Assembly (NCBI GenBank): GCA_963749075.1
Contig: CAVVLJ010000021.1
Location: forward strand, 685,555 to 749,554
From: an uncultured Pseudomonadota bacterium
GTDB taxonomy: Bacteria; Pseudomonadota; Alphaproteobacteria; JACZXZ01
Direction: 5' to 3'
DNA: 64,000 nt
Notes under the pieces: generated by a model
Told to the model about the DNA's origin: nothing
Seen by the model: only the letters and a program-made list of their open reading frames with translations
Databases searched by the model: none
Shown: positions 22,681 to 45,618 of the stretch, in pieces
Layout of the letters: every line of letters starts with the position of its first letter
Position numbering within the stretch: position 1 is the stretch's first letter
Translations under genes and position numbers: made by a program

Positions 22681-24492
22681 ATGACCGCAAGTCCCGTGAC
22701 CGGCGACGCCGCTGCCTACCGCGTGCTCGCGCGCAAGTACCGGCCCGGCCGCTTCGCCGAGCTGATCGGCCAGGCGGCTATGGTGCGCACCCTCACCAAT
22801 GCCTTCAAGGCCGGCCGCCTGGCGCACGCCTTCATCCTCACGGGCGTGCGCGGCGTGGGCAAGACCACCACCGCCCGCATCATCGCCAAGGCGCTCGACT
22901 GCGTGGGTGCCGACGGCAAGGGCGGACCGACCATCGAGCCCTGCGGGCTGTGCGAGCACTGCCTGGCGATCGCCGCCGACCGCGACGTGGACGTGATCGA
23001 GATGGACGCGGCGAGCCGCACCGGCGTCGACGACATCCGCGAGCTCATCGACGGCGTGCGCTACCGGCCGATCGCGGCGCGCTACAAGGTCTACATCATC
23101 GACGAAGTGCACATGCTCTCGAAGAACGCCTTCAACGCGCTCCTCAAGACCCTCGAGGAGCCGCCCGAGCATGTGAAGTTCGTCTTCGCCACGACCGAGA
23201 TCCGCAAGGTGCCGATCACCGTGCTCTCGCGCTGCCAGCGCTTCGACTTGCGCCGCGTCGAGCAGGCCGTGCTCGCGGCCCATCTCGCCAAGGTGGCGGC
23301 GGCGGAGGGAGCGTCGGTGCCCGAGGAGGCCATCCGCCTCATCGCGCGCGCGGCCAACGGCTCGGTGCGCGACGGCCTCTCGCTCCTCGACCAGGCCATC
23401 GCCCACGGCGCCGGCCAGCCCGCGGCCGAGGAGGTGAGGGCCATCCTCGGCCTCGCCGACCGCGCCGCCACGCTCGACCTCTTCGACCTCCTGATGCAGG
23501 GCGAGATCGCGCGCGCGCTCGAGCTCGCGGGCGAGCTCTACAAGGGCGGTGCCGATCCCGTCGTCATCCTCCAGGACCTCCTCGAGGTCTGCCACTGGCT
23601 CACCCGCCTCAAGATCGACCCCGCCGCGGAGGGCCCGCTCGCCTCGGATGCGGAGCGTGCGCGCGGAGGCGGGATGGCGGCGAAGCTCGCCGTGGCCGCC
23701 CTCTCGCGCGCCTGGCAGATGCTGCTCAAGGGCTTGGGCGAGACGCAAACGGCGCCGCAGCCGCTCGCCGCTCTGGAGATGGCGCTCATCCGTCTCGCCT
23801 ATGCCGCCGAGCTGCCCACTCCGGCCGAGCTCGTGCGCGCGCTGAGCCCGGGCGGCAGCGCGGCAGCGGCCGCAGCTCCCGCGCCCCGAGCCTCTCCTGC
23901 GGGCGGGAGAGGGGCAGCACCGGCGCGCGCGAGCCCGGAGGCGGGCGGCGGCCGGCCGCAAGCAGCGCTCGCGCGGGCGGCGGAGCTGCCGGCCGCGGCA
24001 GCGGACGCTCTGCCGCACGCGAAGCCCGCCGAGCCCGCAAGCTTCGCCGAGCTCGTCGAGCTCGTCGAGCAGCGCGAGCCCATCCTCGGCGCCCATATGC
24101 GCAACAATCTGCATCTCGTGCGCTTCGAGCCCGGCCGCCTCGAGTTCCGCCCGAGCCCGCACGCGCCCGCCAGCCTGGGAACGCGCTTGAGCGCGCTCCT
24201 TCAGGAATGGACGGGCCGGCGCTGGGCCATCTCGGTGTCGAACGAGGCGGGCGAGGCGACGCTCTCGGACCAGGCCAAGCGCCGCGCCGCCGACCGCCTC
24301 GCCGAGGCGCGGGCGCTGCCGCTCGTCGAGGCCGTGCTGGCGAGCTTCCCCGGCGCCGTGGTCGAGACCGTGCGCGAGCTCGGCCCCGAGGCCGCAGCCG
24401 AGGCCGCAGCCGAGGCCGCGGCGGCGGACGAGGTCAAGGCCGAGGACGAGCCCGCCGTCGAGCCCGCCCCTCAAGGAGACGCCCTCACATGA
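22681..24492 (+). CDS. dnaX: DNA polymerase III subunit gamma/tau
   Basis: YRVLARKYRP, GVRGVGKTT, IDEVHMLS, SRCQRF. Confidence 0.97.
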   Translation: MTASPVTGDAAAYRVLARKYRPGRFAELIGQAAMVRTLTNAFKAGRLAHAFILTGVRGVGKTTTARIIAKALDCVGADGKGGPTIEPCGLCEHCLAIAADRDVDVIEMDAASRTGVDDIRELIDGVRYRPIAARYKVYIIDEVHMLSKNAFNALLKTLEEPPEHVKFVFATTEIRKVPITVLSRCQRFDLRRVEQAVLAAHLAKVAAAEGASVPEEAIRLIARAANGSVRDGLSLLDQAIAHGAGQPAAEEVRAILGLADRAATLDLFDLLMQGEIARALELAGELYKGGADPVVILQDLLEVCHWLTRLKIDPAAEGPLASDAERARGGGMAAKLAVAALSRAWQMLLKGLGETQTAPQPLAALEMALIRLAYAAELPTPAELVRALSPGGSAAAAAAPAPRASPAGGRGAAPARASPEAGGGRPQAALARAAELPAAAADALPHAKPAEPASFAELVELVEQREPILGAHMRNNLHLVRFEPGRLEFRPSPHAPASLGTRLSALLQEWTGRRWAISVSNEAGEATLSDQAKRRAADRLAEARALPLVEAVLASFPGAVVETVRELGPEAAAEAAAEAAAADEVKAEDEPAVEPAPQGDALT

Positions 24493-24812
24493 AGAACCTC
24501 GGCCAGCTCATGAAGCAGGCGCAGGAGATGCAGAGCCGCATGCAGGCGATGCAGGAGAAGCTCGCCGAGCTCGAGCTCGAGGGTGCCGCCGGCGGCGGCA
24601 TGGTCAAGGTGACGATCAACGGCAAGAGCGAGATCCGCCGCGTCAAGATCGATCCCTCGCTCGCCGACCCCAAGGAGGTCGAGGTGCTCGAGGACCTCAT
24701 CGTCGCCGCCTGCAACGACGCCAAGGCGAAGGTCGAGGCACGCGTCGCCGAGGAGATGCAGAAGTTGACCGGCGGGCTCAATCTGCCGCCCGGTCTCAAG
24801 CTGCCGTTCTGA
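24489..24812 (+). CDS. ybaB: YbaB/EbfC nucleoid-associated protein
   Basis: [30 protein letters not shown]; between dnaX and recR. Confidence 0.95.
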
Positions 24813-24849
24813 GCCGGCGCCGCGCCGAGCCGAGAGGGACGGCGTCGCC

Positions 24850-32632: not shown

Positions 32633-34427
32633 ATGAGCATTCGCCGGCTGCCCTTGAACCTGGTCAACCAGATCGCCGCCGGCGAGGTGGTGGAGCGCCC
32701 GGCCGCGGCCTTGAAGGAGCTCATCGAGAACGCCCTCGACGCCGGGGCTAGCCGCATCGAGGCGGCGCTTCGCGAGGGCGGGCGCACGCTCATCGCGGTC
32801 GCGGACGACGGCTCAGGCATGACGGCGGACGAGCTCCTCCTCGCCGTCGAGCGCCACGCCACCTCGAAGCTCCCCGAGGACGATTTGACGCGCATCGCCA
32901 CCTTGGGCTTCCGCGGCGAGGCGCTGCCCTCGATCGGCGCCGTCTCGCGCATGACGATTGCGAGCCGCGCGCGGGGTGCGTCCGACGCCTGGAGCCTCGC
33001 GGTCGAGGGCGGCGAGGTCGGCCGGCCGCAGCCGGCAGCGCAACCGACGGGCACGCGCGTCGAGGTGCGCGACCTCTTCTACGCGACGCCGGCCAGGCTC
33101 AAATTCATGAAGTCCGAGCGCAGCGAGCTCTTGGCCGCCATCGACGTGGTGAACCGCCTCGCCATGGCGCATCCGGCGGTGGCCTTCGCGCTCTCCGACG
33201 GCGCCCGCGCCTCCGTCAAGCTGCAGGCGGCCCAAGGCGATCTCCTGGACGCGCGGCTCGGGCGGCTCGAAGCGGTGATGGGCCGCGAGTTCGCCGACAA
33301 TGCGCTGCCAATCGCCGCCGAGCGCGAGGGCATCGGCCTCTCGGGCTATGCCGGCGTGCCGACGCTCAACCGTGCGACCGCGCAGCACCAGTACCTCTTC
33401 GTCAACGGCCGGCCGGTGCGCGACAAGCTCCTCTTCGGCGCCGTGCGCGGCGCCTACCAGGATTTCCTCGCGCGCGACCGCCACGCCATGCTCGCCCTCT
33501 TCCTCGAGCTCGCACCCGAGCTCGTCGACGTGAACGTGCATCCGAGCAAGGCCGAGGTGCGCTTCCGCGATGCCGGCCTGGTGCGCGGCCTCATCGTGAG
33601 TGCCTTGAAGCACGCGCTGGCGGCTGCCGGCCACCGCGCCTCGACCACCGTGGCCCACGCCGCGCTCGGCGCCTTCCAGCCGGCGTCGTCACCGGCCTAT
33701 GGCCGCGGCGCGGGCCACCTGCCGCGCGGCCTCGCCGAGGCGGCGGCGGCCTATTTCGCACCGGCCGCGGGCGAGGCGTTGCCGGGCCTGGCCGCGGCGC
33801 CCGAGGTGCGGCCGCTCGCGGCGGACGCTGGCGAGGACGAGACCGCCTATCCCTTGGGCGCCCCGCGGGCCCAGCTCCACGGCACCTACATCGTGGCCGA
33901 GACGGCCGACGGCATCGTCATCGTCGACCAGCACGCGGCCCACGAGCGCCTCGTCTACGAGCGCATGAAGCGGGCCCTCGAGGGGCGCGGCGTCGCCCGC
34001 CAGCTCCTCCTCATCCCCGAGGTCGTCGAGCTCGACGAGCCCGCGGCCGAGCGCCTCTCGCGCCGTGCTGCCGAGCTCGCCGAGCTCGGCCTCGTCCTCG
34101 AGCCCTTCGGCCCGGGTGCGGTCGTCGTGCGCGAGATGCCGGCGCTCTTGGGCGAGTGCGACATTGCGAGGCCTCGTGCGCGATCTCGCCGACGAGCTGG
34201 CCGAGCTCGGCCAGGCGCTCTCCTTGAAGGAGCGCCTCGAGGAGGTCTGCGGCACGCTCGCCTGCCACACGAGCGTGCGCGCCGGAAGGCGCTTGGGCCG
34301 CGCCGAGATGTCGGCGCTCCTGCGCGAGATGGAGGCCACCCCCCACTCCGGCCAGTGCAACCACGGCCGCCCCACCTACGTCGAGCTCAAGCGCGCGGAT
34401 ATCGAGCGGTTGTTCGGGCGGCGCTAA
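32633..34427 (+). CDS. mutL: DNA mismatch repair protein MutL, frameshift near 34165
   Basis: [32 protein letters not shown]; ACH and CNHGRPT lie in the shifted frame. Confidence 0.95.
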
Positions 34428-35953: not shown

Positions 35954-36667
35954 TCAGCCTGCCGCGGCGGCCACGAAGGCGGCGAGGATGCGCCCGTCGC
36001 CCGGGCTGATGAGGAACTCGGGATGCCACTGCACGCCCAAGCAGAAGCGGTAGCCGCGGTGCTCGATGCCCTCGATGATGCCGTCCTCGGCGAGCGCGTT
36101 GACGACGACGCCGGAGCCGACCTCCTTGGCCGCCTGGTGGTGGGCGGAATTGACGGCGAGCTCGTCCAAGCCGGTGATCTCGTGGAGGAGTGTCCCGCGC
36201 TCGACGCGCACGGTGTGGCCCGCCTCGGTGCGCGGGTTGGGCTGCTCGTGGGGGAGCGCTCCCTCGACCTCGTCCGGGATGTGCTGGATGAGGGTGCCGC
36301 CGAGGGCCACGTTCAAGAGCTGCTGGCCGCCGCAGATGCCGAGCACCGGCATATTGCACCTGAGCGCCGCCTCGAGGATGGCGCGCTCGAAGGCCGTGCG
36401 GCCGTCCTTGGTCTTGACCGTGGGGTGGCGCGTCGTGGCGCCGAAGAGGGCGGGGTCCACGTCGAAGGCGCCGCCGGTGACGACGAGGCCGTCGAGCCGC
36501 TCGAGATAATCCTCCGCGCGCTCGGGCTCGTGGGGCAGCAAGACCGGCAGCCCGCCCGCCGCAACGATGGTCTCGGCATAGTTCTGGCGCAGCGCATACC
36601 ACGGCAGCTTGGAATAGCCGCCCGGCGGCTCCGCATCGAGGGTGAGGCCGATGGCAGGGCGAGTCAT
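35954..36667 (-). CDS. Peptidase C26 / gamma-glutamyl-gamma-aminobutyrate hydrolase family
   Basis: PVLGICGGQQ, VNSAHHQA, GVQWHPE. Confidence 0.92.
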   Translation of the reverse strand: MTRPAIGLTLDAEPPGGYSKLPWYALRQNYAETIVAAGGLPVLLPHEPERAEDYLERLDGLVVTGGAFDVDPALFGATTRHPTVKTKDGRTAFERAILEAALRCNMPVLGICGGQQLLNVALGGTLIQHIPDEVEGALPHEQPNPRTEAGHTVRVERGTLLHEITGLDELAVNSAHHQAAKEVGSGVVVNALAEDGIIEGIEHRGYRFCLGVQWHPEFLISPGDGRILAAFVAAAAG

Positions 36668-36848
36668 GGCGGGGAATGTAGGGCGGTTCGGGGGGAAGGG
36701 CAATGCGGGGGGGCCTGTGTGTTGTGCCAAGGACGGACATGTACGCATCCGTGCCGAGTCACGATCAGCGACTGGAAACGAAACCGGTCGTTGGCCTCGC
36801 AAAGCGACTAGAGCCGCCGCCGCGCAGGAGCCCTGACGTGCCCACGGA

Positions 36849-39308
36849 TCACGGCTTGGCTAGAAGATTGAGGTTTAGCGCACCGCAACCGCATCGCAAG
36901 CCTTCCTTCTTCTCCCCTTGTTCGGGAACGACATAGAACATTTCTTGGCATGTGGAGCAGGTGAACGCCCCGGTGAAGCCTTTGAAGGCGGCCACCACTG
37001 GTTCGAAATCCGGCTTCTGTAGGTTCGCCCATGCGTTGAAATGGACAGCTGTGTTTATCTGCCATTGCTCATGACCAGTCTTTGTCTTGGCGTCCGCAAA
37101 AGCCGCGTCGCGAGTCGCAATCGAACCGACGGCGTCCTTCTGGCCCCAAGAGTTCGCTGCGGCCTTTGCCCTCTTGAAGAGCTCGCCGAGCGCACGCGTT
37201 GCGCTGGGGAGAAGGTCGCCGAGGGTAAACTGGGCATCACCACGAAACTCGACGTTGGCACGGAGGCGATCGCAGGTTTCCTTCGCGAAGTGTTCAAGAT
37301 AGTGTCGTAGGAGGGCGGCTGCTGCGCGAATGTCATTCTTAGCGAGATGGGCGTCCAATTCGGCCCAGACATCATGATCATTCCATTCGGTTGGCCCCAT
37401 GTCGACGTTCCACGTCCTGAAGTGGGCGAAGCTGCGTCCCTTGATCAAGCCCTCCGACCTCATGTGCTTGAGCCAAATCTCGTCGTGGGTCGTGAAGATG
37501 AACTGCGTGCTCGGAAAGTGCTCCTTGAGAAGTGTGCAAACCTGCCGCCGATGTCCGGTGTCGACCGACATCAGCACGTCGTCCAAGACTGCAAGGGTGA
37601 AATTGTCTCCGAGCAGATAGCGCATCAGTGCCAGGTATAGACACAGACCCATTCCATCTTGGTGTCCTTCGCTATGGTAGGCACCCGGCGGGAAGTGCCC
37701 GCGACCGTAAAAATCCACATCGAACCCCAGCTTGCCGATGGATGGCATCAGCCTGGCTGTGAACGTGCTCTCGTCCTCATGGTTCATCTCGCGGTAAAAT
37801 TCCGAGAAGGTCGCTTCGACATCCTTGTAGATGCCTTCAAGAGCCTTTGTGGTAACCTGAGCGTATAGATCGAAGACCTTTGATGCGCGTTCGGCGCGCA
37901 ACTTGCCGATGGCGACCTTCTGCCTGGCCCTACGGTATTGCTCGAGCCGCTCCTGAGCTACCACCAGAAATTCGCGTGCGGCGTCTTGCTTGGTCGGCTC
38001 TGGAATTGCGGCGACGCCGGCCGCCAGCGCCGTGATCGTCGTCGCGAGATCAGGTGCCTGGTGCGCCGCAAGCAACACGGCGCGAGTATCGTCGAGTGGC
38101 AACAGTTTTTGCAGTTGCGCGTAGCGGCCGGCCAGAATGGCCTTGAAGTCATTTAAGGCGGTGACCTCGACGGGCGGATTGAGCTGAGCGCCGTAGCCGA
38201 TGACCGTTGCCAGCGCGCTTCCAACCGCATGAATAACATCCATCAACGGACCGATCTGTGCTTCCAAGGCTCTTCGTTTTACGGTCACGGCCTCGAAGTG
38301 TTTCAGTTTTTCTGCTACGTGCTGTCGGAAAGCATCCGGTTCAAAAGGCGTGTCGCAGACCGGACAGACCTTGTCATCATAGAAATCGAGCGCGGACCGG
38401 AGCAATGCTTCGCGGGATACGGCGTCGAGGCTGTCAGCGTCCTTTGTGAGTTCGGCCGCTGCGGATGCAGCCGCGACGCATGTCTCTTTAAACGCTTCAG
38501 ACCGCAGCTTCTCAAGGGCGTCCTTTAGCGTCGTCAAATCGCCCGTTGCTTGGACCTTTGGAACGCGAGCGGGTGCTGCGCCGGTGGAAGCGGTTGCCAA
38601 ACCGTCCTTCACGGAGGTTGTCGCATCGAGCACTGTAAAAGCGGGTAGGCCCAAAAGCTCGCGCTTGGGGTTGACGGCCCCAAGGACGCTGGATTTGGAC
38701 AATTGGGCGACACCGAGCGCGGCCAGGAGATGTGAAATGGCATCCATTTCCGTGCGCTCCAGCGGCGGAAGCTCGCGGGCGCACGCATTAGAAATCTTTT
38801 GCAGGACCGTTCGCAGTTTTTCGATATCGTCAAGCCGTAGGAGAGCCTGCACCTCTTTAGAGCGTTGGCCTGGTTCGGACAGGACGTAACGGATCAACTC
38901 ACGCCGGGACAAGACGAACTCGGGATGAAGCTTCACATTGTCGAACGCGGCCTGGACGTCAACATCATTCGGCGTGATTGTCGGAACGCCCGCTGCTTTG
39001 ACGGTCCGGTGAATGGTCGCCCTTTTTCCGCCCAGCGACGGGATGACGACATCAAGAGTGACGAAGGATCGATCGGGCTTGTTCCGGCTGTCGACGTGCG
39101 GACCGTGTGCTTTTACCGAAAGTCCGCCCGTGCCGCTTCCGGACAGGCGAGAAATGCTCCCAGTCAGCCCAAACTCAATGGCGTCGACGATGCCGCTTTT
39201 GCCGGTTCCGTTCGGACCGCATGCGGCAAAGTTCTGGTCTTTGGTATCCAGCGTGAGGTCGCGAATACCGCGAAACTCATGTATCCGCAGCTTCTCGATC
39301 CGGATCAT
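36849..39308 (-). CDS. Rad50/SMC-like ABC ATPase with Zn-hook, HEPN-like C-terminal domain and Zn ribbon (RloC-like architecture)
   Basis: Walker A GPNGTGKS, coiled coil with CPVC, signature HSEGH, Walker B VLDDVLMSVD, H-loop TTHD, LLRHYLE...TLGDL...INTAVHFN, CSTC...CGC. Confidence 0.8.
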   Translation of the reverse strand: MIRIEKLRIHEFRGIRDLTLDTKDQNFAACGPNGTGKSGIVDAIEFGLTGSISRLSGSGTGGLSVKAHGPHVDSRNKPDRSFVTLDVVIPSLGGKRATIHRTVKAAGVPTITPNDVDVQAAFDNVKLHPEFVLSRRELIRYVLSEPGQRSKEVQALLRLDDIEKLRTVLQKISNACARELPPLERTEMDAISHLLAALGVAQLSKSSVLGAVNPKRELLGLPAFTVLDATTSVKDGLATASTGAAPARVPKVQATGDLTTLKDALEKLRSEAFKETCVAAASAAAELTKDADSLDAVSREALLRSALDFYDDKVCPVCDTPFEPDAFRQHVAEKLKHFEAVTVKRRALEAQIGPLMDVIHAVGSALATVIGYGAQLNPPVEVTALNDFKAILAGRYAQLQKLLPLDDTRAVLLAAHQAPDLATTITALAAGVAAIPEPTKQDAAREFLVVAQERLEQYRRARQKVAIGKLRAERASKVFDLYAQVTTKALEGIYKDVEATFSEFYREMNHEDESTFTARLMPSIGKLGFDVDFYGRGHFPPGAYHSEGHQDGMGLCLYLALMRYLLGDNFTLAVLDDVLMSVDTGHRRQVCTLLKEHFPSTQFIFTTHDEIWLKHMRSEGLIKGRSFAHFRTWNVDMGPTEWNDHDVWAELDAHLAKNDIRAAAALLRHYLEHFAKETCDRLRANVEFRGDAQFTLGDLLPSATRALGELFKRAKAAANSWGQKDAVGSIATRDAAFADAKTKTGHEQWQINTAVHFNAWANLQKPDFEPVVAAFKGFTGAFTCSTCQEMFYVVPEQGEKKEGLRCGCGALNLNLLAKP

Positions 39309-39514
39309 GCCGCGTCCGGAAATAATGCGGCCCGAATTGCCGGCTCAGCGAAGACGCCATCATCTAGGACCACCTCCCGTAACTTCGGGGCGATGTCTGC
39401 AAGCCCTTCCGTTTTCGCGAGCTCGTCGAAGAATTTGGAGAGCACAGCATGGGCAACGGTTGTCACCGGAGCGGAGCTTTCTTCGGATTCTGATGTCGGC
39501 TCGTTTTCCGTCAT
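39305..39514 (-). CDS. Small acidic helical protein translationally coupled to the ATPase
   Basis: 69 aa, strong SD AGGAGG, ATGA overlap with the ATPase start. Confidence 0.8.
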   Translation of the reverse strand: MTENEPTSESEESSAPVTTVAHAVLSKFFDELAKTEGLADIAPKLREVVLDDGVFAEPAIRAALFPDAA

Positions 39515-39532
39515 GGCTTTCCTCCTACATGT

Positions 39533-39561
39533 ATTATAAGTTGCGTGGAGTTGTTCGTCAC
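39533..39561 (-). promoter_or_regulatory. Sigma70 promoter of the small protein-ATPase operon
   Basis: GTGACG-17 bp-TATAAT on the minus strand just upstream of the SD. Confidence 0.7.
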
Positions 39562-39870
39562 GCGCGTATTTGGGGAACTACTGGAGCGGGAACCGGCAAG
39601 ACGGAATTTGTGCGCATCGGCCGCAACAAAGATGGCGCGGTCCGGCAGGAATCCGGTCTGGCCGATAACCGGTGCGAATACGTCTCGTCGCGCCGCACGC
39701 AACAGCACTTTTTGGGCCGGGGACAGCAATGGTCGCTCCTGGCGACTTACGGAGGGGCGTGATCGCGGAACGGGGTCCAGAGGGGGTTCGAGCCGGATCA
39801 GATCACGACGTTCGGCATCGTGAATTGCTACGTCAGCTAAGTGCCGATAGACGCGTCCAAGGAGAAAACA

Positions 39871-40362
39871 ATGATTGAGGTATGTCATAATCTCTTTGTT
39901 GGCTCACAGGATGATGAGGTCAGCATTCGTGGCCAAACCGGCTGGTTCGTTGTTCACGCCTGCAAAGAGCCTTATCACCGGGAAGCGTTGGGTTACAGAG
40001 GTCAAGGTGCGCCGAAAGCTCATCCCGAATATCTCGTCGCCCGGCGCAAAGGTTGCGTGATTCTCAATCTTATCGACGCCGATGATGTCAAATTCATTCC
40101 GCCAGAATTAATCGATGCCGCGTTAAGCGACATTCATCAGAACATCGCATCAAGCAAGGTTCTGGTTCACTGCAACCAAGGCATGTCTCGATCACCGACG
40201 ATTGCCTTTTTGTATTTGTTGAGATTCTCCGATTTGTTTGATGGGCAAGATCACCAAAAAGGTTTGCAGAACTTCAAAAGGCTCTATCCGGTCTATGTTC
40301 CGAAGCAGGGCATGGCCGATTATGTCAAACTAAACTGGCTCAGATATGCGTCTAGAGAATAA
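39871..40362 (+). CDS. Dual-specificity (Cys-based) phosphatase
   Basis: VLVHCNQGMSRS = HCxxGxxRS, N-terminal LFVG, SD AAGGAG. Confidence 0.92.
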   Translation: MIEVCHNLFVGSQDDEVSIRGQTGWFVVHACKEPYHREALGYRGQGAPKAHPEYLVARRKGCVILNLIDADDVKFIPPELIDAALSDIHQNIASSKVLVHCNQGMSRSPTIAFLYLLRFSDLFDGQDHQKGLQNFKRLYPVYVPKQGMADYVKLNWLRYASRE

Positions 40363-40372
40363 GTGCAGACCC

Positions 40373-40936
40373 TCACCCCGTACGACCGAATTGATAATCC
40401 ACGCCCGTCATCCGAATTCGCCACTTCAGCATGTCAAGGCTAACGCCAAAGTGTTGGGCCGCCGTCGAATCAGTCATGCGATTGGCGCGCATCCAGAGCA
40501 AGGCAGGCCTGGGCAGTAACATTGTGCCACCAAGCCAATCCGCCTCTGCCTCCTGCGCTTCGTCGTAATTGCCATTGAGGAAATGGCCATCTGCTGTCCG
40601 GCCGGCCGTGGCTAATTCGTGGCCTAGCATGATGTGAGACAGCTCGTGCATGAGCACGCTGTTAATTCGAGCCGCGGCCAGCTTTGGATTGTAGACCACG
40701 AGATAGTGGTCGTCCTCGCGCAGGACGAATGCCGACCATTCGTCGCTGGCCACTTTGAGTAGATGGTTGCGGTCTTTATCCGGCCAGCCCGGAATTTCGG
40801 ATGCCGACCAAATGGTGACCCCGAGGTGCACACCTAGACGCCTCGCGTCTAGTCGCGCGGCCAACTCGATGCCAAGTGTCTTTCTAATCTCCAGCGAGCG
40901 GCGTTCACACTGCGCTTTGAACCCGCGCCGAAGCAA
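40373..40936 (-). CDS. ImmA/IrrE family Zn metallopeptidase (CapP-like)
   Basis: MHELSH (HExxH), QEAEADWLGGTMLLPR, C-terminal HTH AQHFGVS. Confidence 0.92.
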   Translation of the reverse strand: MLRRGFKAQCERRSLEIRKTLGIELAARLDARRLGVHLGVTIWSASEIPGWPDKDRNHLLKVASDEWSAFVLREDDHYLVVYNPKLAAARINSVLMHELSHIMLGHELATAGRTADGHFLNGNYDEAQEAEADWLGGTMLLPRPALLWMRANRMTDSTAAQHFGVSLDMLKWRIRMTGVDYQFGRTG

Positions 40937-40938
40937 TC

Positions 40939-41298
40939 TCAGTGCCCTTCTGACCCGATCTTCTCGACAAATTTTTTGTGTGCCGCAATGATAAGACTCG
41001 CGAGGGACTTCGCCGTCTGGGCGCTGAAAGTACGGCCTTGCTTGAAGCCGATTTGAACCGCAGGCATTGACGGCGCCTTTACACCGTGGCTACCCGCTCC
41101 ACCGATTACCAGCGCGGGGTCAATGTTCAGCCACGCGCAAACTTTGCCCAGCGTTCGACTGTCCGGAAGATGTCCGCGCTCGATTCGAGATAGGGTCGCG
41201 GGGCTAGTGCCAATTTCGTGCGCCGCCGCTCTGATGCCCATGCTCCCGCGCTTCTGGGCCACTTTTTGTCCCAATGCTTCAGGGGAAAGTTGTGCCAT
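40939..41298 (-). CDS. XRE-family HTH regulator (CapH-like)
   Basis: MGIRAAAHEIGTSPATLSRIERGHLPD HTH; co-transcribed with the peptidase. Confidence 0.92.
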   Translation of the reverse strand: MAQLSPEALGQKVAQKRGSMGIRAAAHEIGTSPATLSRIERGHLPDSRTLGKVCAWLNIDPALVIGGAGSHGVKAPSMPAVQIGFKQGRTFSAQTAKSLASLIIAAHKKFVEKIGSEGH

Positions 41299-41308
41299 GC
41301 CGTCTCCT

Positions 41309-41374
41309 GTCTCAGATTGGAAAAAACAGTTTCAATTGTGATACAAATGCGCTAGTATGTCTTAAAGCTGAAAC
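41309..41374. promoter_or_regulatory. Three imperfect palindromic operators (approximately GTYTCA-N4-TGAAAC) in a divergent promoter
   Basis: GTCTCAgattGGAAAA (41309), GTTTCAattgTGATAC (41329), GTCTTAaagcTGAAAC (41359). Confidence 0.55.
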
Positions 41375-41443
41375 AGCCACATCGAATCACGGCGATTCGT
41401 GGCCGTCAAGCGGAAGTTGGCTCATTGAGAGGATCACGAGGCA

Positions 41444-41869
41444 ATGGCTGCTAAATCCTATGCCCTGACTTTCAAGGGGTACTACCTAGAGTCCGGTATT
41501 GGCGGGCTTCCGGCCGAGTCGGGAATCTATTGCGTGTATGCTTGCACCTATGACGCAGCAAAAGATACGGTCAGTCTCCGCCGGCTGATTTACATCGGAG
41601 AATCCGATGACGTGCAAGACCGGGTGAAGAACCACGAGAAGTGGTCCGTTTGGCGCAGAGAGCTGAGGTCGGGCGAGGAACTTTGCTTCAGCTGCGCGCT
41701 CATCTCCGGGGAAGACGATCGGCAGCGCGCCGAGGCAGCGGAGATTTTCGAGCATAAGCCGCCCTGTAATACCGAATATAAACATGAGTTTCCGTTCGAT
41801 CGAACTACGATCACGAATAGCGGCAAGGCTGCGCTGCTTCACAGCCACTTCACGGTTGAGCGGACTTAA
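41444..41869 (+). CDS. Stand-alone GIY-YIG nuclease family protein
   Basis: GIYCVY...LIYIGES...DRVKNH...AEAAEI...PPCN. Confidence 0.88.
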   Translation: MAAKSYALTFKGYYLESGIGGLPAESGIYCVYACTYDAAKDTVSLRRLIYIGESDDVQDRVKNHEKWSVWRRELRSGEELCFSCALISGEDDRQRAEAAEIFEHKPPCNTEYKHEFPFDRTTITNSGKAALLHSHFTVERT

Positions 41870-41935
41870 GCCTGCGCGGCGATGTCCTAGACTGCGTGTG
41901 TGCGTTGTCGACGGTTGTAACCAGGAGGTGAGAAG

Positions 41936-42253
41936 ATGTCCGAGAGTGATACTCATAAGCGGGCGAAATCTCGTGCGGCCGGCGCTGGGGGTCAGACGGA
42001 GGTGCCGTTGACGGGTGGCCGCCGGCTGGACGCGTTGTCGGATGCCGGGCGCGCGACAGAGGTCGAGCGGAGCGGCAACATGAACAGTCTCAAGGCGGCT
42101 GCCCGGCGTCTTCGGGATGCACCCGGGAATCAGAGGGTGTTGCAGGTGCCTCAGCAAGACATGGACAAAGCTGCTGCGGCGATGAGGCAGATTGAAGTCG
42201 CCGGAACCGTGAAAAATTTGATCGGGACGAAGCGCCGCAGCATTCGGCCTTAA
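41936..42253 (+). CDS. Small putative PD-(D/E)xK nuclease-fold protein (CoiA-like motif)
   Basis: SD AGGAGG; ESDTHKRAK...TEV...RRLDAL...ATEVERSG. Confidence 0.6.
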   Translation: MSESDTHKRAKSRAAGAGGQTEVPLTGGRRLDALSDAGRATEVERSGNMNSLKAAARRLRDAPGNQRVLQVPQQDMDKAAAAMRQIEVAGTVKNLIGTKRRSIRP

Positions 42254-42564
42254 TTGCAATCGCCGAGCATGCGTCGGAGGCCTGTCGCTGCTGGAGAGGT
42301 TCCCTTTTTGCGGCTGAAAGCGCTGAACTTGCCGATCTCCGGGATTGGGATGATACTGCTTCGGGCCCGATGGCCCGCTGCGGATCATTGCCGCCCACCG
42401 ACCCCATGAAACCGATATCCGGAGCCGTTACTCGAGTCATACGGCTATAGTGCCAGCCACCAGCCTTGTTCGTTCACCTGCGTCGCGGCATGCCGCCCGC
42501 CCTCGCGCCCACCCACCCCCTCCCCGCTTGACGGCCCACCCCCTCTCCCGCCAACCTTCCCCCC

Positions 42565-43050
42565 ATGCCGCCGCGCAAGCTCTCCTACATGGCGACCGCC
42601 CTCGCCCGGGCCGAGGCCGCCGCCGCGCGCGGCGAGGTGCCGGTGGCGGCGCTCATCGTCGACGGCCGCGGCGAGATCGTGGCGGCGGCGGAGAACCGCA
42701 TGCGCGAGGCGGGCGATCCCACGGCGCACGCCGAGATGCTCGCCATCCGCGAGGCCTGCGCGCGGCTCGGCGAGGGGCGGCTCGGGGCGTGCGACATCTA
42801 CGTCACCCTCGAGCCTTGCGCCATGTGCGCGGCTGCCATCTCGTTAGCGCGGCTACGCCGGCTCTACTTCGCGGCCTATGATGCCAAGGGCGGCGGCGTC
42901 GAGCATGGCGCGCGCGTCTTCGCGCAAGTGACCTGCCACCACCGGCCCGAGGTCTATGGCGGCATCGACGAGCGGCGCGCGGCGGCCCTTATGGCGCGTT
43001 TCTTCGCCGCGCTCCGCGCCGCCGCGGGCGGCACGCAAGAGGAAGGATGA
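42565..43050 (+). CDS. tadA: tRNA adenosine deaminase
   Basis: GEVPV, DPTAHAE, TLEPCAMC. Confidence 0.9.
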   Translation: MPPRKLSYMATALARAEAAAARGEVPVAALIVDGRGEIVAAAENRMREAGDPTAHAEMLAIREACARLGEGRLGACDIYVTLEPCAMCAAAISLARLRRLYFAAYDAKGGGVEHGARVFAQVTCHHRPEVYGGIDERRAAALMARFFAALRAAAGGTQEEG

Positions 43051-43547: not shown

Positions 43548-43946
<399 letters not shown>

Positions 43947-43988
43947 CGGCTGTCGCGCTGCGCGAGGGTGCCTCGGACTGAGCGCGGT

Positions 43989-44200
43989 GGGTCCTTCGAG
44001 ACGCTCGCTCCCGCTCGCTCCTCAGGATGAGATAAAGTCTTTCTGCCACACACAATTTTTCCTCGTCCTGAGGAGCGCCCCGCGGGGCGTAGGCCCGCTC
44101 TCTTGCGTCACGCAAGAGAGGCGCGCTTAGCGCGCCGGGGGCGCGTCTCGAAGGACCACGGTGGCACTGCAAGCCTCCTCGATATCTGTGCATCTACTAG
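43989..44200. repeat. Inverted copy of the CCTCAGGATGAG/GGGATGCACA element with an extra internal hairpin
   Basis: Reverse complement resembles 32276-32432; inserted CTCTCTTGCGTCACGCAAGAGAG hairpin. Confidence 0.8.
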
Positions 44201-45618
44201 CGCGAAAGCGGCAATGACGAACGAGGCGGCGGCACGCGCCCGAGGAGGCCCGCCGGCATGGCGCGGAGCTCGAGCGTGGCCACCGCCACGGCGAGGGAGG
44301 CGAGCCAGATCAAGCGGCTCTGGTAGCGCCCGACCGGCGTCGAGAAGACCCCGCAGATGGCGGCGTTGAGCAGGAGCCCCAGGAGGACGACGGCCAGGAG
44401 CTCGGCCGGCTCGCGCGCGCGGCGCCGCCAGCACCAGGCGAGCAGCACTGCCAAGGCCGCGAGCGAGCCATAGGCGACCGGCGTATAGAGGCGATCGAGG
44501 GCCTCGGCCAAGGGCTTGATGCGGCCGTCCTCCTGGCCGGCGGCGAGATAGGCGGGCACCAGCTCCGGGGCGTATTTCTCGAGCATGTAGCGCGTGTGCC
44601 AGAAGGGGCCGGCGATCTCCTCGGCCGCGGCGAAGCGCACGAACTGCTCTGCCGCCGACGAGGCCGCGGCGGCGAGGTGCATGGCGGGATAGGCCGCGAG
44701 CGTCTCGAGCGTGATGTGCCGCGTCTCCTCGCGGTAGCCCTCCCAGCCGCCCAGTGCCGCGAAGGGGCTGTCGTCGTCCCAGATCCACTCGCGTGCGCTC
44801 TTGGGCAGGCTCGCGCGGTAGGCGCAGAGGCGGTACTCGGGCGTGGGGCAGCGCTCGTCGAGAAAGCGCGCGACGATGCCGCTCTCGACCAGCCGGCCGA
44901 AGAGGAAGGTCTCGCCACCGGGCGTGAAGCCGAGGTAGCGCGAGGCCATGAGGTTGGCGAGCGGCACGGCGAGGAGGGCTAATCCCAGCACGCCCGCCGC
45001 AAGCGCCAGGCCGCGGCGATCGGCGAGGCCGGGCCGGCGCAAGGAAGCCGCGGCGGCGGTCGCGAGCGCCAAGCCGATGGCCAGCGCCAGATGGGCCATG
45101 TGCACGGCCAATGCGGCGAAGAGCAGTGCCGCCGTGAGCGCCGTCTCCAAGCGGCTCAGCCGCGCGCCGCGAAAGGCGAGGAGATACCAGCCCAGCACCA
45201 CGACCGGCGCGAAGGCGTCCGGCATCACCTTGGCGCTGACCCAGGCGACGCCGGTCAGCGCCGCGAGCGCCAGCGTCACCAGTGCCGAGAGGAGGGCGCT
45301 CCCGAGGCCGTGGCTCTTGAGCGTGAGATGGACGAGGTAGAGCAGCATCGCCGCCTGGGCGGCGATCACCGGCCACAGGCTTCCGGGCGCGCCCAAGAGG
45401 GCGATGAAGAAGCCGTAGAAGGGGCCGCGGCCGGGCTCGAGCGCTCCCTCGAAGGCGCGCGCCAGATAGGCGCCGGTATCGTAGAAGGTGAGGGGAAAGC
45501 CGTTGACGAGGGCAGGGTAAAGGAGGGCGAGGAGGGCCGCGGCCGAGGCCGCGATGGCGGCGAGGCGCCGCGCCGGCAGCGCCTCGATGAGTCTGCGATC
45601 GGCGGGCCGGGGGCTCAC
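44197..45618 (-). CDS. Polytopic membrane protein (possible GT-C fold glycosyltransferase-like)
   Basis: Many TM helices, NGFPL.FYDTGAY, MPDAF and RYQSR motifs; GTGA overlap with bfr. Confidence 0.65.
   Translation of the reverse strand: MSPRPADRRLIEALPARRLAAIAASAAALLALLYPALVNGFPLTFYDTGAYLARAFEGALEPGRGPFYGFFIALLGAPGSLWPVIAAQAAMLLYLVHLTLKSHGLGSALLSALVTLALAALTGVAWVSAKVMPDAFAPVVVLGWYLLAFRGARLSRLETALTAALLFAALAVHMAHLALAIGLALATAAAASLRRPGLADRRGLALAAGVLGLALLAVPLANLMASRYLGFTPGGETFLFGRLVESGIVARFLDERCPTPEYRLCAYRASLPKSAREWIWDDDSPFAALGGWEGYREETRHITLETLAAYPAMHLAAAASSAAEQFVRFAAAEEIAGPFWHTRYMLEKYAPELVPAYLAAGQEDGRIKPLAEALDRLYTPVAYGSLAALAVLLAWCWRRRAREPAELLAVVLLGLLLNAAICGVFSTPVGRYQSRLIWLASLAVAVATLELRAMPAGLLGRVPPPRSSLPLSR

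Follow-up and report, generated by a model that had tools for sequence, protein, structure and literature searches.

A mosaic island in an alphaproteobacterial genome that probably joins a RloC/Lamassu-like ATPase cassette to a switch-controlled GIY-YIG nuclease

We analyzed a 64,000-nucleotide stretch of DNA, hereafter the window, from an uncultured alphaproteobacterium (Pseudomonadota, GTDB lineage JACZXZ01; GenBank assembly GCA_963749075.1, contig CAVVLJ010000021.1, positions 685,555 to 749,554 of the forward strand), which contains a 5.8-kb block of seven genes between two housekeeping genes (Table 1). We consider it probable that this block is a horizontally acquired mosaic island of three or four independently moving cassettes. 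These would comprise a RloC/Lamassu-like zinc-hook ATPase with its small partner (cassette A), a nuclease controlled by a repressor-peptidase switch (cassette C), and two passengers, a phosphatase (cassette B) and a small protein with a predicted nuclease fold (cassette D). The components of this reading differ in strength: our confidence is high that the island is a mosaic and not a single system, and moderate that cassette A is an immune nuclease. A first-pass annotation of the same DNA had described a candidate defence island that might be one system or two to three modules; what it observed is confirmed, and its interpretation is partly supported.

The block is a real insertion. Its seven open reading frames (ORFs), which span 36,849-42,253, have the order and strands given in the first-pass annotation, and the GC content falls to 0.50-0.62 between 37,000 and 42,500, compared with 0.70-0.75 in both flanks, which agrees with the lower GC noted there. 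To the left lie mutL, two RNA-modification genes and the C26 peptidase/amidotransferase gene, all housekeeping, and to the right the tadA-type deaminase gene, an AhpD-like gene and msrB. No integrase is encoded among the island ORFs, no tRNA gene lies nearby, and a search for direct or inverted repeats flanking the island returned only short pairs at chance level. The comparison with relatives lacking the insert, which the first-pass annotation had recommended, was made by searching the 10 kb around the block in 31 related genomes. In four of the five same-genus genomes (G001, G003, G004 and G005) the site is empty, with the flanks 105-145 nucleotides (nt) apart on one contig; the gap is 86-280 nt in the same-family or same-class genomes G006, G008, G009, G010, G016 and G021. 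Alignment to these relatives, from which the start of the C26 gene was set at the ATG at 36,667, places the left junction at about 36,690, just beyond that codon, where homology stops, and the right junction at about 42,520, where homology restarts a little ahead of a conserved TTGACG that precedes tadA. The fifth same-genus genome, G002, has 1,588 nt between the flanks, and this gap encodes a Fic/DOC-family protein of 404 amino acids (Pfam Fic 8.3e-14). A different insert thus occupies the identical site, which therefore takes varied foreign cargo: the C26/tadA intergenic spot is a hotspot for such cargo.

It is extremely improbable that the block is an artefact of assembly or binning, the outcome that the first-pass annotation had named as a possible refutation. 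The genome is metagenome-assembled, with 23 contigs and 5.15% contamination, the GC drop is sharp, and in run X2 a low-depth (2.2) contig fuses 36351 to 42624 via 25 other letters; against these points, the contig that contains the island is about 750 kb long, synteny with the relatives extends through the flanks as far as the junctions, and separate Logan contigs of the soil-metagenome run X1 bridge both junctions (36640-38641 and 41003-42606) with zero mismatches. The crossing of the junctions by the X1 contigs excludes a scaffolding error, although this support is not independent because run X1 may be the source sample. The X2 junction contig disagrees with the empty site of the relatives and may derive from another organism.

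The evidence for a mosaic comes from the distribution of the individual genes. Relatives of the ATPase were collected by scanning one genome per species with a family alignment (A1). Among 310 genome stretches that matched the pattern, 296 encode an ATPase relative, in many phyla; the same scan queried with the single ATPase protein recovered zero relatives. The neighbourhood counts cover 80 kept loci of the 296, with the closest ATPase relatives (83-84% identity) left out; these loci belong to Alpha-, Beta- and Gammaproteobacteria, Acidobacteria, Verrucomicrobiota, Bacteroidota, Patescibacteria, Omnitrophota, Nitrospirota and others. The other five island genes are found at none of the 80 (tblastn with the window proteins), and the ATPase, the phosphatase and the 105-amino-acid gene are found at none of the 80 loci kept from 160 in a metagenome scan for the GIY-YIG nuclease. 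These counts, together with the occurrence of the phosphatase and 105-amino-acid families each alone elsewhere and the unequal GC of the sub-blocks (0.50 in the phosphatase, 0.57-0.62 in the other island parts), make it very unlikely that all seven genes form one integrated system in which control by the repressor-peptidase pair extends over both nucleases and, by an indirect route, over ATPase and phosphatase, even though the genes are tightly packed, share a low GC content, have no housekeeping gene between them, and include a phosphatase gene and an ATPase operon that face each other across just 327-356 nt. It would have been a mistake to take so compact an island for one system; of the two options in the first-pass annotation, that of independent modules of defence type stands.

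Cassette A is an autonomous two-gene operon. The 4-nt overlap between the stop codon of the small gene and the start codon of the ATPase gene recurs in 65 of the 77 loci with at least 250 nt of upstream sequence, and all 65 overlapping small ORFs match a single hidden Markov model built from themselves; with the window protein as tblastn query, the small ORF is detected directly upstream of the ATPase in 36 of the 80 loci. When neighbouring ORFs within 5 kb were clustered, setting aside the small-ORF clusters and an ORF antisense to the small ORF, the largest further cluster covered 6 of the 80 loci. The small ORF recurs and nothing else is conserved nearby, and therefore cassette A consists of exactly two genes. 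The promoter-like site upstream of the small gene is proposed on its consensus match alone, the scan having found 3 sites where 2.3 are expected.

The large protein of this operon comprises an ABC head, a coiled coil, a zinc hook, a C-terminal helical domain and a Cys4 ribbon. Homologues number 2,670 at E<=0.001 among 8,000 scored candidates, and the 120 that were listed, from many genera and in some cases plasmid-borne, are nearly all 816-835 amino acids long. In a 28-sequence alignment the Walker A motif (GPNGTGKSG), a signature-like motif (SEGHQDG), the Walker B motif (AVLDDVLMSVD) and the H-loop (FTTHDE) are invariant, and so are C315, P316 and C318 of the hook, which lies at the centre of a long helical insert (28/28). 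A CxxC is present at the hook position in 67 of 70 ORFs taken from the loci, and the other three look like wrongly picked ORFs. A sequence search of solved structures with alignment A1 returned ATPase heads only (PtuA-type, Rad50 and SMC), and the source databases label the homologues RecF, SMC or AAA ATPase. PADLOC-DB 2.0.0 (2023), which served for all scans against defence models, gave weak partial matches of the ATPase to LmuB (PDLC03859, 6.5e-17, 60 bits), mad3 (1.2e-16) and PtuA heads. In that library no model fits any of the cassettes, in agreement with the earlier statement that the island matches no named system, and NCBIfam and PHROGs add nothing specific on the island proteins. The literature searched yielded no description of the ATPase family, which the classification of ABC ATPases by Krishnan et al. 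(2020) may already list.

No model in PADLOC, Pfam, NCBIfam or PHROGs recognizes the 69-amino-acid protein, and structure prediction supports its binding to the neck of the ATPase. The complex of the two proteins, predicted with custom alignments A1 for the ATPase and A6 for the small protein, reached ipSAE interface scores of 0.65, 0.65 and 0.64, compared with 0.00 for all three controls. The mark of 0.65 is attained by 116 of 157 solved complexes and by 2 of 215 mismatched pairs, counts that hold only approximately here because custom alignments were used. The runs share at least 70% of contacts, and the partner is modelled with a pLDDT (per-residue model confidence) of 70-72. In the predicted interface, ATPase residues 157-172 and 471-493, where the coiled coil exits and re-enters the head, contact residues 19-65 of the small protein. 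The same neck is where, in Rad50 and SMC proteins, the Rad50-binding helices of Mre11 and the N-domains of kleisins bind.

The C-terminal domain of the ATPase is the candidate catalytic part. In an alignment of 46 diverse sequences, E687 is nearly invariant beside the invariant residues listed in Table 1, and residues 605-819 are modelled (pLDDT 83.6) as long helices packed in a bundle, after which come three short strands. A Foldseek search of the Protein Data Bank (PDB) gave no match for this domain at E<=0.001; Pfam searches with the 46 C-domains at E<=1 found no HEPN or other domain family, apart from stray zinc-ribbon matches in at most four members, and DUF4145 had no match. The first-pass annotation had called the protein an ATPase fused to HEPN. 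The Rad50/SMC-like zinc-hook ATPase is upheld by Pfam and the invariant motifs, and the HEPN assignment is weakly supported: an Rx4-6H motif is not conserved, since the window protein has R668-x4-H673 but H673 is Y or F in other members, and the invariant H756 is preceded by N752 or Q750 rather than by an arginine. Our confidence that the C-domain is a HEPN RNase is low to moderate.

Among known systems, RloC and Lamassu are the closest in design. RloC is described by Davidov & Kaufmann (2008, PMC2610378) as a zinc-hook ABC ATPase fused to an anticodon nuclease with an Arg-x3-Glu-x36-52-His triad. For comparison we searched 301 genomes with Pfam AAA_13 (13 of them match at E<=1e-20, the window's own genome giving no match) and took from the results 12 natural RloC-like proteins; they are 754-807 amino acids long and have one or two CxxC motifs, one always at 266-305, together with R-x3-E and (S)H motifs. 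The cassette A protein shares with RloC a length of about 800 amino acids, an ABC head into which a coiled coil with a CxxC hook at its centre is inserted, a helical domain at the C-terminus in which an Arg-x3-Glu and, further on, a His are invariant, and a patchy distribution in defence contexts. It differs in its additional Cys4 ribbon, in a longer spacing between Arg-Glu and His, in the lack of an AAA_13 match, and in having a conserved, translationally coupled 69-amino-acid partner that RloC lacks. A profile-profile alignment (hhalign) of the ATPase with the 12 RloC-like proteins gave a probability of 97.9% (E 4.5e-13, columns 545-786). In a protein atlas, the top three named look-alikes of residues 645-819 are AAA_13-bearing fragments with scores of 0.80-0.81, which chance reaches one-third of the time. 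In its construction the ATPase is like RloC, but membership of the RloC family could not be shown.

Lamassu consists of an effector, LmuA, an SMC-like ATPase, LmuB, and a small subunit, LmuC. Cassette A likewise combines an SMC-like coiled-coil ATPase, for which LmuB is the best PADLOC match, with a small partner and a nuclease-type effector. However, the LmuB match is weak and partial, the effector-type domain is fused to the ATPase instead of forming a separate LmuA, and the 69-amino-acid partner fits no PADLOC model; separate LmuA and LmuC genes are absent from cassette A, which has two genes only in 65 of 77 loci. A further system, RAZR, joins a Cys4 zinc ribbon to a divergent HEPN RNase according to its description (Nature 2026, PMC13017515); unlike in cassette A, the ribbon is N-terminal, the domain is of the DUF4145 type with a conserved Arg/His pair, and there is no ATPase. 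Because features of RloC (a fused nuclease-like domain and a hook) join a feature of Lamassu (a small subunit), cassette A could show how an SMC-type DNA sensor is coupled to an effector.

The surroundings of cassette A in other genomes are consistent with a role in defence. We picked 22 loci for taxonomic spread and full flanks and scanned 139 proteins from 18 of them against PADLOC. At least one neighbour within 4.5 kb matches a model at E<=1e-10 in 13 of the 18 loci and none does in 5, a proportion that fits a defence-island habitat and is not a measured enrichment, because a background control is absent. The neighbours comprise Hhe/PDC-S37 (L013), capH and capP with an HNH enzyme (L019), mad3 (L020, L041 and L056), a nicking endonuclease (L024), PDC-M37B (L031), PDC-S31 (L077), a weak LmuB-like protein (L011), DarTG with a GajB-like helicase, HmaB and HEC-05/08 (L058), DarTG with AbiEi and type I restriction-modification (R-M) (L063), and type III R-M (L072 and L074); type II R-M is also among the neighbour types of the sampled loci. 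The first-pass annotation had proposed gene-neighbourhood analysis as a check, and its outcome is divided: cassette A does lie beside defence genes, and the seven genes do not co-occur elsewhere. At two of these loci a large protein is encoded directly upstream of cassette A, namely the weakly LmuB-like protein of 1,191 amino acids (L011:3195-6767) and the Hhe/PDC-S37 protein of 1,989 amino acids (L013:797-6763).

These neighbours also bear on the possibility that the ATPase and its partner form a DNA-repair or chromosome-maintenance complex of the SbcC, RecN or RecF type and not an immune nuclease. The database names of the homologues, the PtuA-type, Rad50 and SMC heads that are the best matches among solved structures, and the modelled position of the small protein on the neck, the place of Mre11 and kleisins on Rad50 and SMC, would all suit such a complex. 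We nevertheless regard it as distinctly unlikely, given that the ATPase is not found at the C26/tadA site in any of the five same-genus genomes, that its distribution across phyla is patchy yet combined with high identity and some plasmid copies, that its neighbours are rich in defence genes, and that its C-terminal part adds a further conserved domain in which polar residues are invariant.

Cassette C comprises the XRE repressor and M78 peptidase genes, in one operon, and the divergent gene for a minimal GIY-YIG nuclease. The GIY-YIG call had been made in the first-pass annotation, and it is borne out by conserved residues, with no Pfam match for the 141-amino-acid protein at E<=0.01 and only a short PADLOC match (PDC-S14, 2.1e-5 over 25 residues). 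The protein has 145 homologues, several of which are named GIY-YIG by NCBI, and in 29 sequences G27, Y29, Y50, G52, R60, E97 and N109, which constitute the GIY-YIG core, are invariant. We take R60, E97 and N109 to be the catalytic Arg, Glu and Asn of GIY-YIG nucleases. A simple promoter scan of the intergenic control region between the two transcription units (41299..41443) passed no promoter.

The pairing of the nuclease with a switch recurs. An XRE of the window type is present in 5 of the 80 GIY-YIG loci, 4 of which also have the M78 gene; the orientation is divergent and the gene order the same in every case. Because XRE and M78 proteins diverge fast, we scanned the divergent upstream ORFs with Pfam, and found a helix-turn-helix (HTH) domain, an M78 domain or both in 28 of the 65 loci with at least 600 nt of upstream sequence; M78 is present in 23 of the 28, fused to the HTH in six cases, and several unrelated sequence clusters or subfamilies are represented. 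The literature searched holds no description of a pairing of XRE/M78 with GIY-YIG. In five loci (L117, L118, L120, L125 and L126) the divergent neighbours are a 64-amino-acid ORF and an AAA_21/AAA_15 ATPase of 453-455 amino acids in place of XRE/M78, the remaining loci being unassigned, and in L097 a DarT gene follows the M78 gene.

In its design, cassette C resembles CapH/CapP, ImmR/ImmA and DdrO/IrrE, in which an HTH repressor and an M78 peptidase form one operon upstream of and opposite to the controlled operon. In the preprint by Lau et al. (2022), the CapH/CapP arrangement is described beside CBASS, DISARM and other operons, and HTH and M78 pairs are reported beside diverse immune operons there and in the preprint by Calloji et al. 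(2026). The first-pass annotation had called the switch CapH/CapP-like, which holds for the HTH_3 and M78 domains and for their order and strands but not for closer kinship. The PADLOC matches of the peptidase are weak (RmrA 3.5e-5, capP 1.2e-4) and capH has no match; by comparison, the true capP/capH pair at L019 scores 1.6e-58 and 6e-37. Furthermore, the gene that would be controlled in cassette C is a single minimal GIY-YIG nuclease. We read cassette C as an ImmA-like switch that would control a one-gene nuclease effector, whose inducing signal and toxicity we infer.

Cassette B encodes a phosphatase, as proposed in the first-pass annotation, and its Cys-based type is supported by the P-loop HCNQGMSRS (HCx5R), in which H100, C101 and R107 are invariant in 33 sequences, the DSPc match itself lying below the cut-off. 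The ORF may also begin at the GTG at 39841; the relatives start at the position corresponding to the ATG at 39871. The 1,263 homologues are mostly 163 amino acids long, the relatives carry DSPc (PF00782), and PADLOC finds nothing. The family occurs in 1 of 400 other genomes of the class, so that few contexts are available there, and in 50 viral contigs; isolated phages with the gene include the Vibrio phages 1.077.O, 1.070.O and VpV262 and the Tunturiibacter phage Tunturi_3, and a plasmid search gave one partial match. In Vibrio phage 1.077.O (L203, MG592453.1 26042-28691) the phosphatase stands in a row with an HAD acid phosphatase and a metallophosphatase-like gene, and in L184 it is near a Metallophos_2 gene.

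At three loci the phosphatase gene is the immediate neighbour of a gene for a zinc-hook ABC ATPase that has a helical domain in its C-terminal part. One is the window; in G229, which holds the only other copy in the class sample (L175, G229:C3), it lies just downstream of an AAA_13 RloC-like gene broken by TAG; and in a viral contig (L176:3676-7863) it has a type I specificity gene on one side and a full RloC-type gene (AAA_13 4.4e-156) on the other, with RhuM nearby. The phosphatase may be an accessory to RloC-type nucleases, acting on RNA ends either for the host or, in phages, against it, and its position beside RloC-type genes may point to an unstudied step at RNA ends, in immunity by anticodon nucleases or in counter-immunity. 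The link is weakened by the presence of an RloC-like neighbour in only 2 of 51 phosphatase loci, most of which are true phage genomes, by the A1-type ATPase occurring in none of them, and by the lack of the phosphatase at all 80 cassette A loci.

The frequency of the phosphatase in phages raises the alternative that the island is the decayed remnant of a prophage or integrative element, with XRE/M78 as an ImmR/ImmA-type immunity switch and the GIY-YIG nuclease, the phosphatase and the mini-nuclease as phage morons that have no role in host defence. The preprint by Lau et al. presents XRE and M78 pairs as typical of prophages and of integrative and conjugative elements, and tyrosine-recombinase-like ORFs lie near the GIY-YIG gene in 8 of the 80 loci. 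We consider this alternative unlikely, if somewhat less so than a repair complex: genes for an integrase, for structural proteins or for replication are missing from the island, only 2 viral contigs were found to carry the ATPase, and the GIY-YIG nuclease has partners from so many unrelated XRE/M78 lineages that it resembles a separate cassette more than a remnant.

The 105-amino-acid protein of cassette D was assigned to the PD-(D/E)xK nucleases in the first-pass annotation, and the predicted fold, which spans about 95 of the 105 residues and has the acidic E22, D32, E42 and E44 on strands 1-3, is consistent with this. Pfam and PADLOC have no match for the protein, Foldseek finds none in the PDB at E<=0.001, and the family alignment has no conserved stretch. 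With 2 of 400 other genomes of the class carrying the family, contexts are few, and in them the gene is unlinked to other island genes. The protein has its predicted fold in common with minimal PD-(D/E)xK nucleases (BamHI/BglII/OkrAI cores, NucS, Can2 and CdiA-CT) but is far smaller, has E-x-E rather than E-x-K and, unlike these enzymes, shows no evident partner or DNA-binding part.

Several points weigh against our preferred reading of a mosaic island with an RloC/Lamassu-like cassette A and a switch-controlled nuclease in cassette C, besides the approximate interface calibration and the missing background control mentioned above. The loci sampled for defence neighbours were chosen by the analyst for diversity and full flanks. 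In the ATPase, R668-x3-E672 is separated from H756 by 83 residues compared with 36-52 in RloC, the RloC profile match is confident over the C-lobe of the ATPase only, the C-domains alone align with those of RloC at hhalign probabilities of 1% and 0.3%, and Pfam AAA_13 (PF13166) does not match the protein at E<=0.01. Upstream of the GIY-YIG gene, 37 of the 65 loci have no detectable HTH or M78 domain. CapP has a C-terminal GAF domain according to Lau et al., and the cassette C peptidase differs from CapP and IrrE in having none, because it is 187 amino acids long and its M78 domain ends at residue 174. Finally, the functions of all cassettes are deduced by computation and not from experiment.

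The analysis demonstrates that DNA was inserted, and it establishes the make-up of the domains, the limits of the cassettes, which residues are conserved and where the small subunit is predicted to make contact; every step of sensing, cleavage and defence in the following model we infer. In cassette A, a Rad50/SMC-like ATPase would dimerise, its coiled coil tipped by the CPxC hook and its neck clamped by the 69-amino-acid partner. The ATPase and hook would sense DNA ends, DNA damage or phage DNA, as in RloC or Lamassu, and the small subunit would gate an ATP-driven movement of head and neck. This movement might free the C-terminal helical domain (R668, E672 and H756) and the Cys4 ribbon for cleavage of nucleic acid, the likeliest target being RNA such as tRNA, whereupon the infected cell would stop. 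In cassette C, the XRE protein would repress the divergent promoter in a switch of the CapH/CapP or ImmR/ImmA type; on a stress signal, M78 would cleave XRE, and the GIY-YIG nuclease would be made and act as effector or toxin. The phosphatase and the mini PD-(D/E)xK protein would be separate passengers, the former perhaps an accessory of an RloC-type nuclease.

A bolder proposition joins these parts. Cassette A would be a widespread, unnamed abortive-infection system in which a subunit resembling a kleisin or the Rad50-binding domain of Mre11 gates a new HEPN-like/zinc-ribbon RNase, an evolutionary bridge between RloC and Lamassu; the phosphatase would be a recurrent accessory of RloC-type nucleases that acts on cleaved RNA ends and serves phages as a counter-measure; and XRE/M78 with GIY-YIG would be a stress-induced one-gene nuclease defence. 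That all of this holds together is a tentative idea that we rather doubt. We rate cassettes A and C as variations on known types of system and see in the island an ordinary mosaic of cassettes of this sort. Even so regarded, cassette A is a compact and highly conserved candidate immune system (two genes, 2.7 kb) that is unnamed in the 2023 PADLOC library, and the predicted neck contact points to specific residues for mutagenesis. That unrelated XRE/M78 switches repeatedly accompany one minimal GIY-YIG nuclease would extend the CapH/CapP theme to a one-gene effector.

Table 1. Features of the island, its flanks and the corresponding site in a relative (window coordinates unless a locus is given; a dot denotes no strand)
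Feature	Position	Strand	Basis or remark
Inserted island, 5.8 kb	36690..42520	.	bounds approximate, about +/-40 nt; flanking intergenic DNA diverged
Left flank: C26 peptidase/glutamine amidotransferase gene	35954..36667	-	Pfam Peptidase_C26 4.3e-60
Cassette A, large gene: Rad50/SMC-like ABC ATPase, 819 aa (amino acids)	36849..39308	-	Pfam SMC_N 5.5e-15, AAA_23 2.1e-11
Cys4 zinc ribbon (C784, C787, C806, C808)	36852..36959	-	invariant in 46 sequences; three short strands in the model
C-terminal helical domain, residues ~645-780, candidate HEPN-like nuclease	36969..37376	-	invariant R668, E672, D691, W749, N752, H756
CPVC zinc-hook motif at the midpoint of the coiled-coil insert (residues 315-318)	38355..38366	-	Rad50_zn_hook 7.8e-4, below cut-off
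Cassette A, small gene: helical protein, 69 aa	39305..39514	-	stop overlaps ATPase start by 4 nt (ATGA)
Promoter-like site GTGACG-17-TATAAT upstream of small gene	39533..39561	-	10/12 matches to consensus
Cassette B: Cys-based dual-specificity-type phosphatase, 163 aa	39871..40362	+	Pfam DSPc 5e-07, 30 bits (cut-off 33.5)
Cassette C: M78 (ImmA/IrrE-type) zinc peptidase, 187 aa	40373..40936	-	Pfam Peptidase_M78 5.5e-13, residues 75-174
Cassette C: XRE-family HTH repressor, 119 aa	40939..41298	-	Pfam HTH_3 3.2e-06; upstream of peptidase, one operon
Divergent control region between XRE and GIY-YIG, 145 nt, AT-rich	41299..41443	.	sequence read directly
Cassette C: minimal GIY-YIG nuclease, candidate effector, 141 aa	41444..41869	+	conserved residues
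Cassette D: protein with predicted PD-(D/E)xK (restriction-endonuclease) fold, 105 aa	41936..42253	+	fold
Right flank: tadA-type deaminase gene	42565..43050	+	Pfam MafB19-deam, dCMP_cyt_deam_1, 1e-25 to 1e-26
Fic/DOC gene of G002 at the C26/tadA site	L003:210-1421 (G002:C202)		Pfam Fic

Outside the island, three further features of the window were recorded. In mutL (32633-34427, plus strand) the reading frame changes near 34,165-34,175: the N-terminal part is read in the frame of 32633, and the true C-terminus in that of the ORF 34065-34427. Either the frameshift is genuine, in which case the organism could be a mutator, or the metagenome-assembled genome has an assembly indel here. Downstream of msrB, at about 43,946-44,211, lies a repeat of about 140-260 bp that resembles elements of the repetitive extragenic palindromic (REP) or miniature inverted-repeat transposable element (MITE) type and has many copies, at 80-91% identity, in the genome itself and in all five same-genus genomes. 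The segment 43,571-44,500 is 99% identical to positions 23887-24816 of another contig of the same assembly (G000:C4:23887-24816), which represents either a duplicated segment or an assembly overlap.

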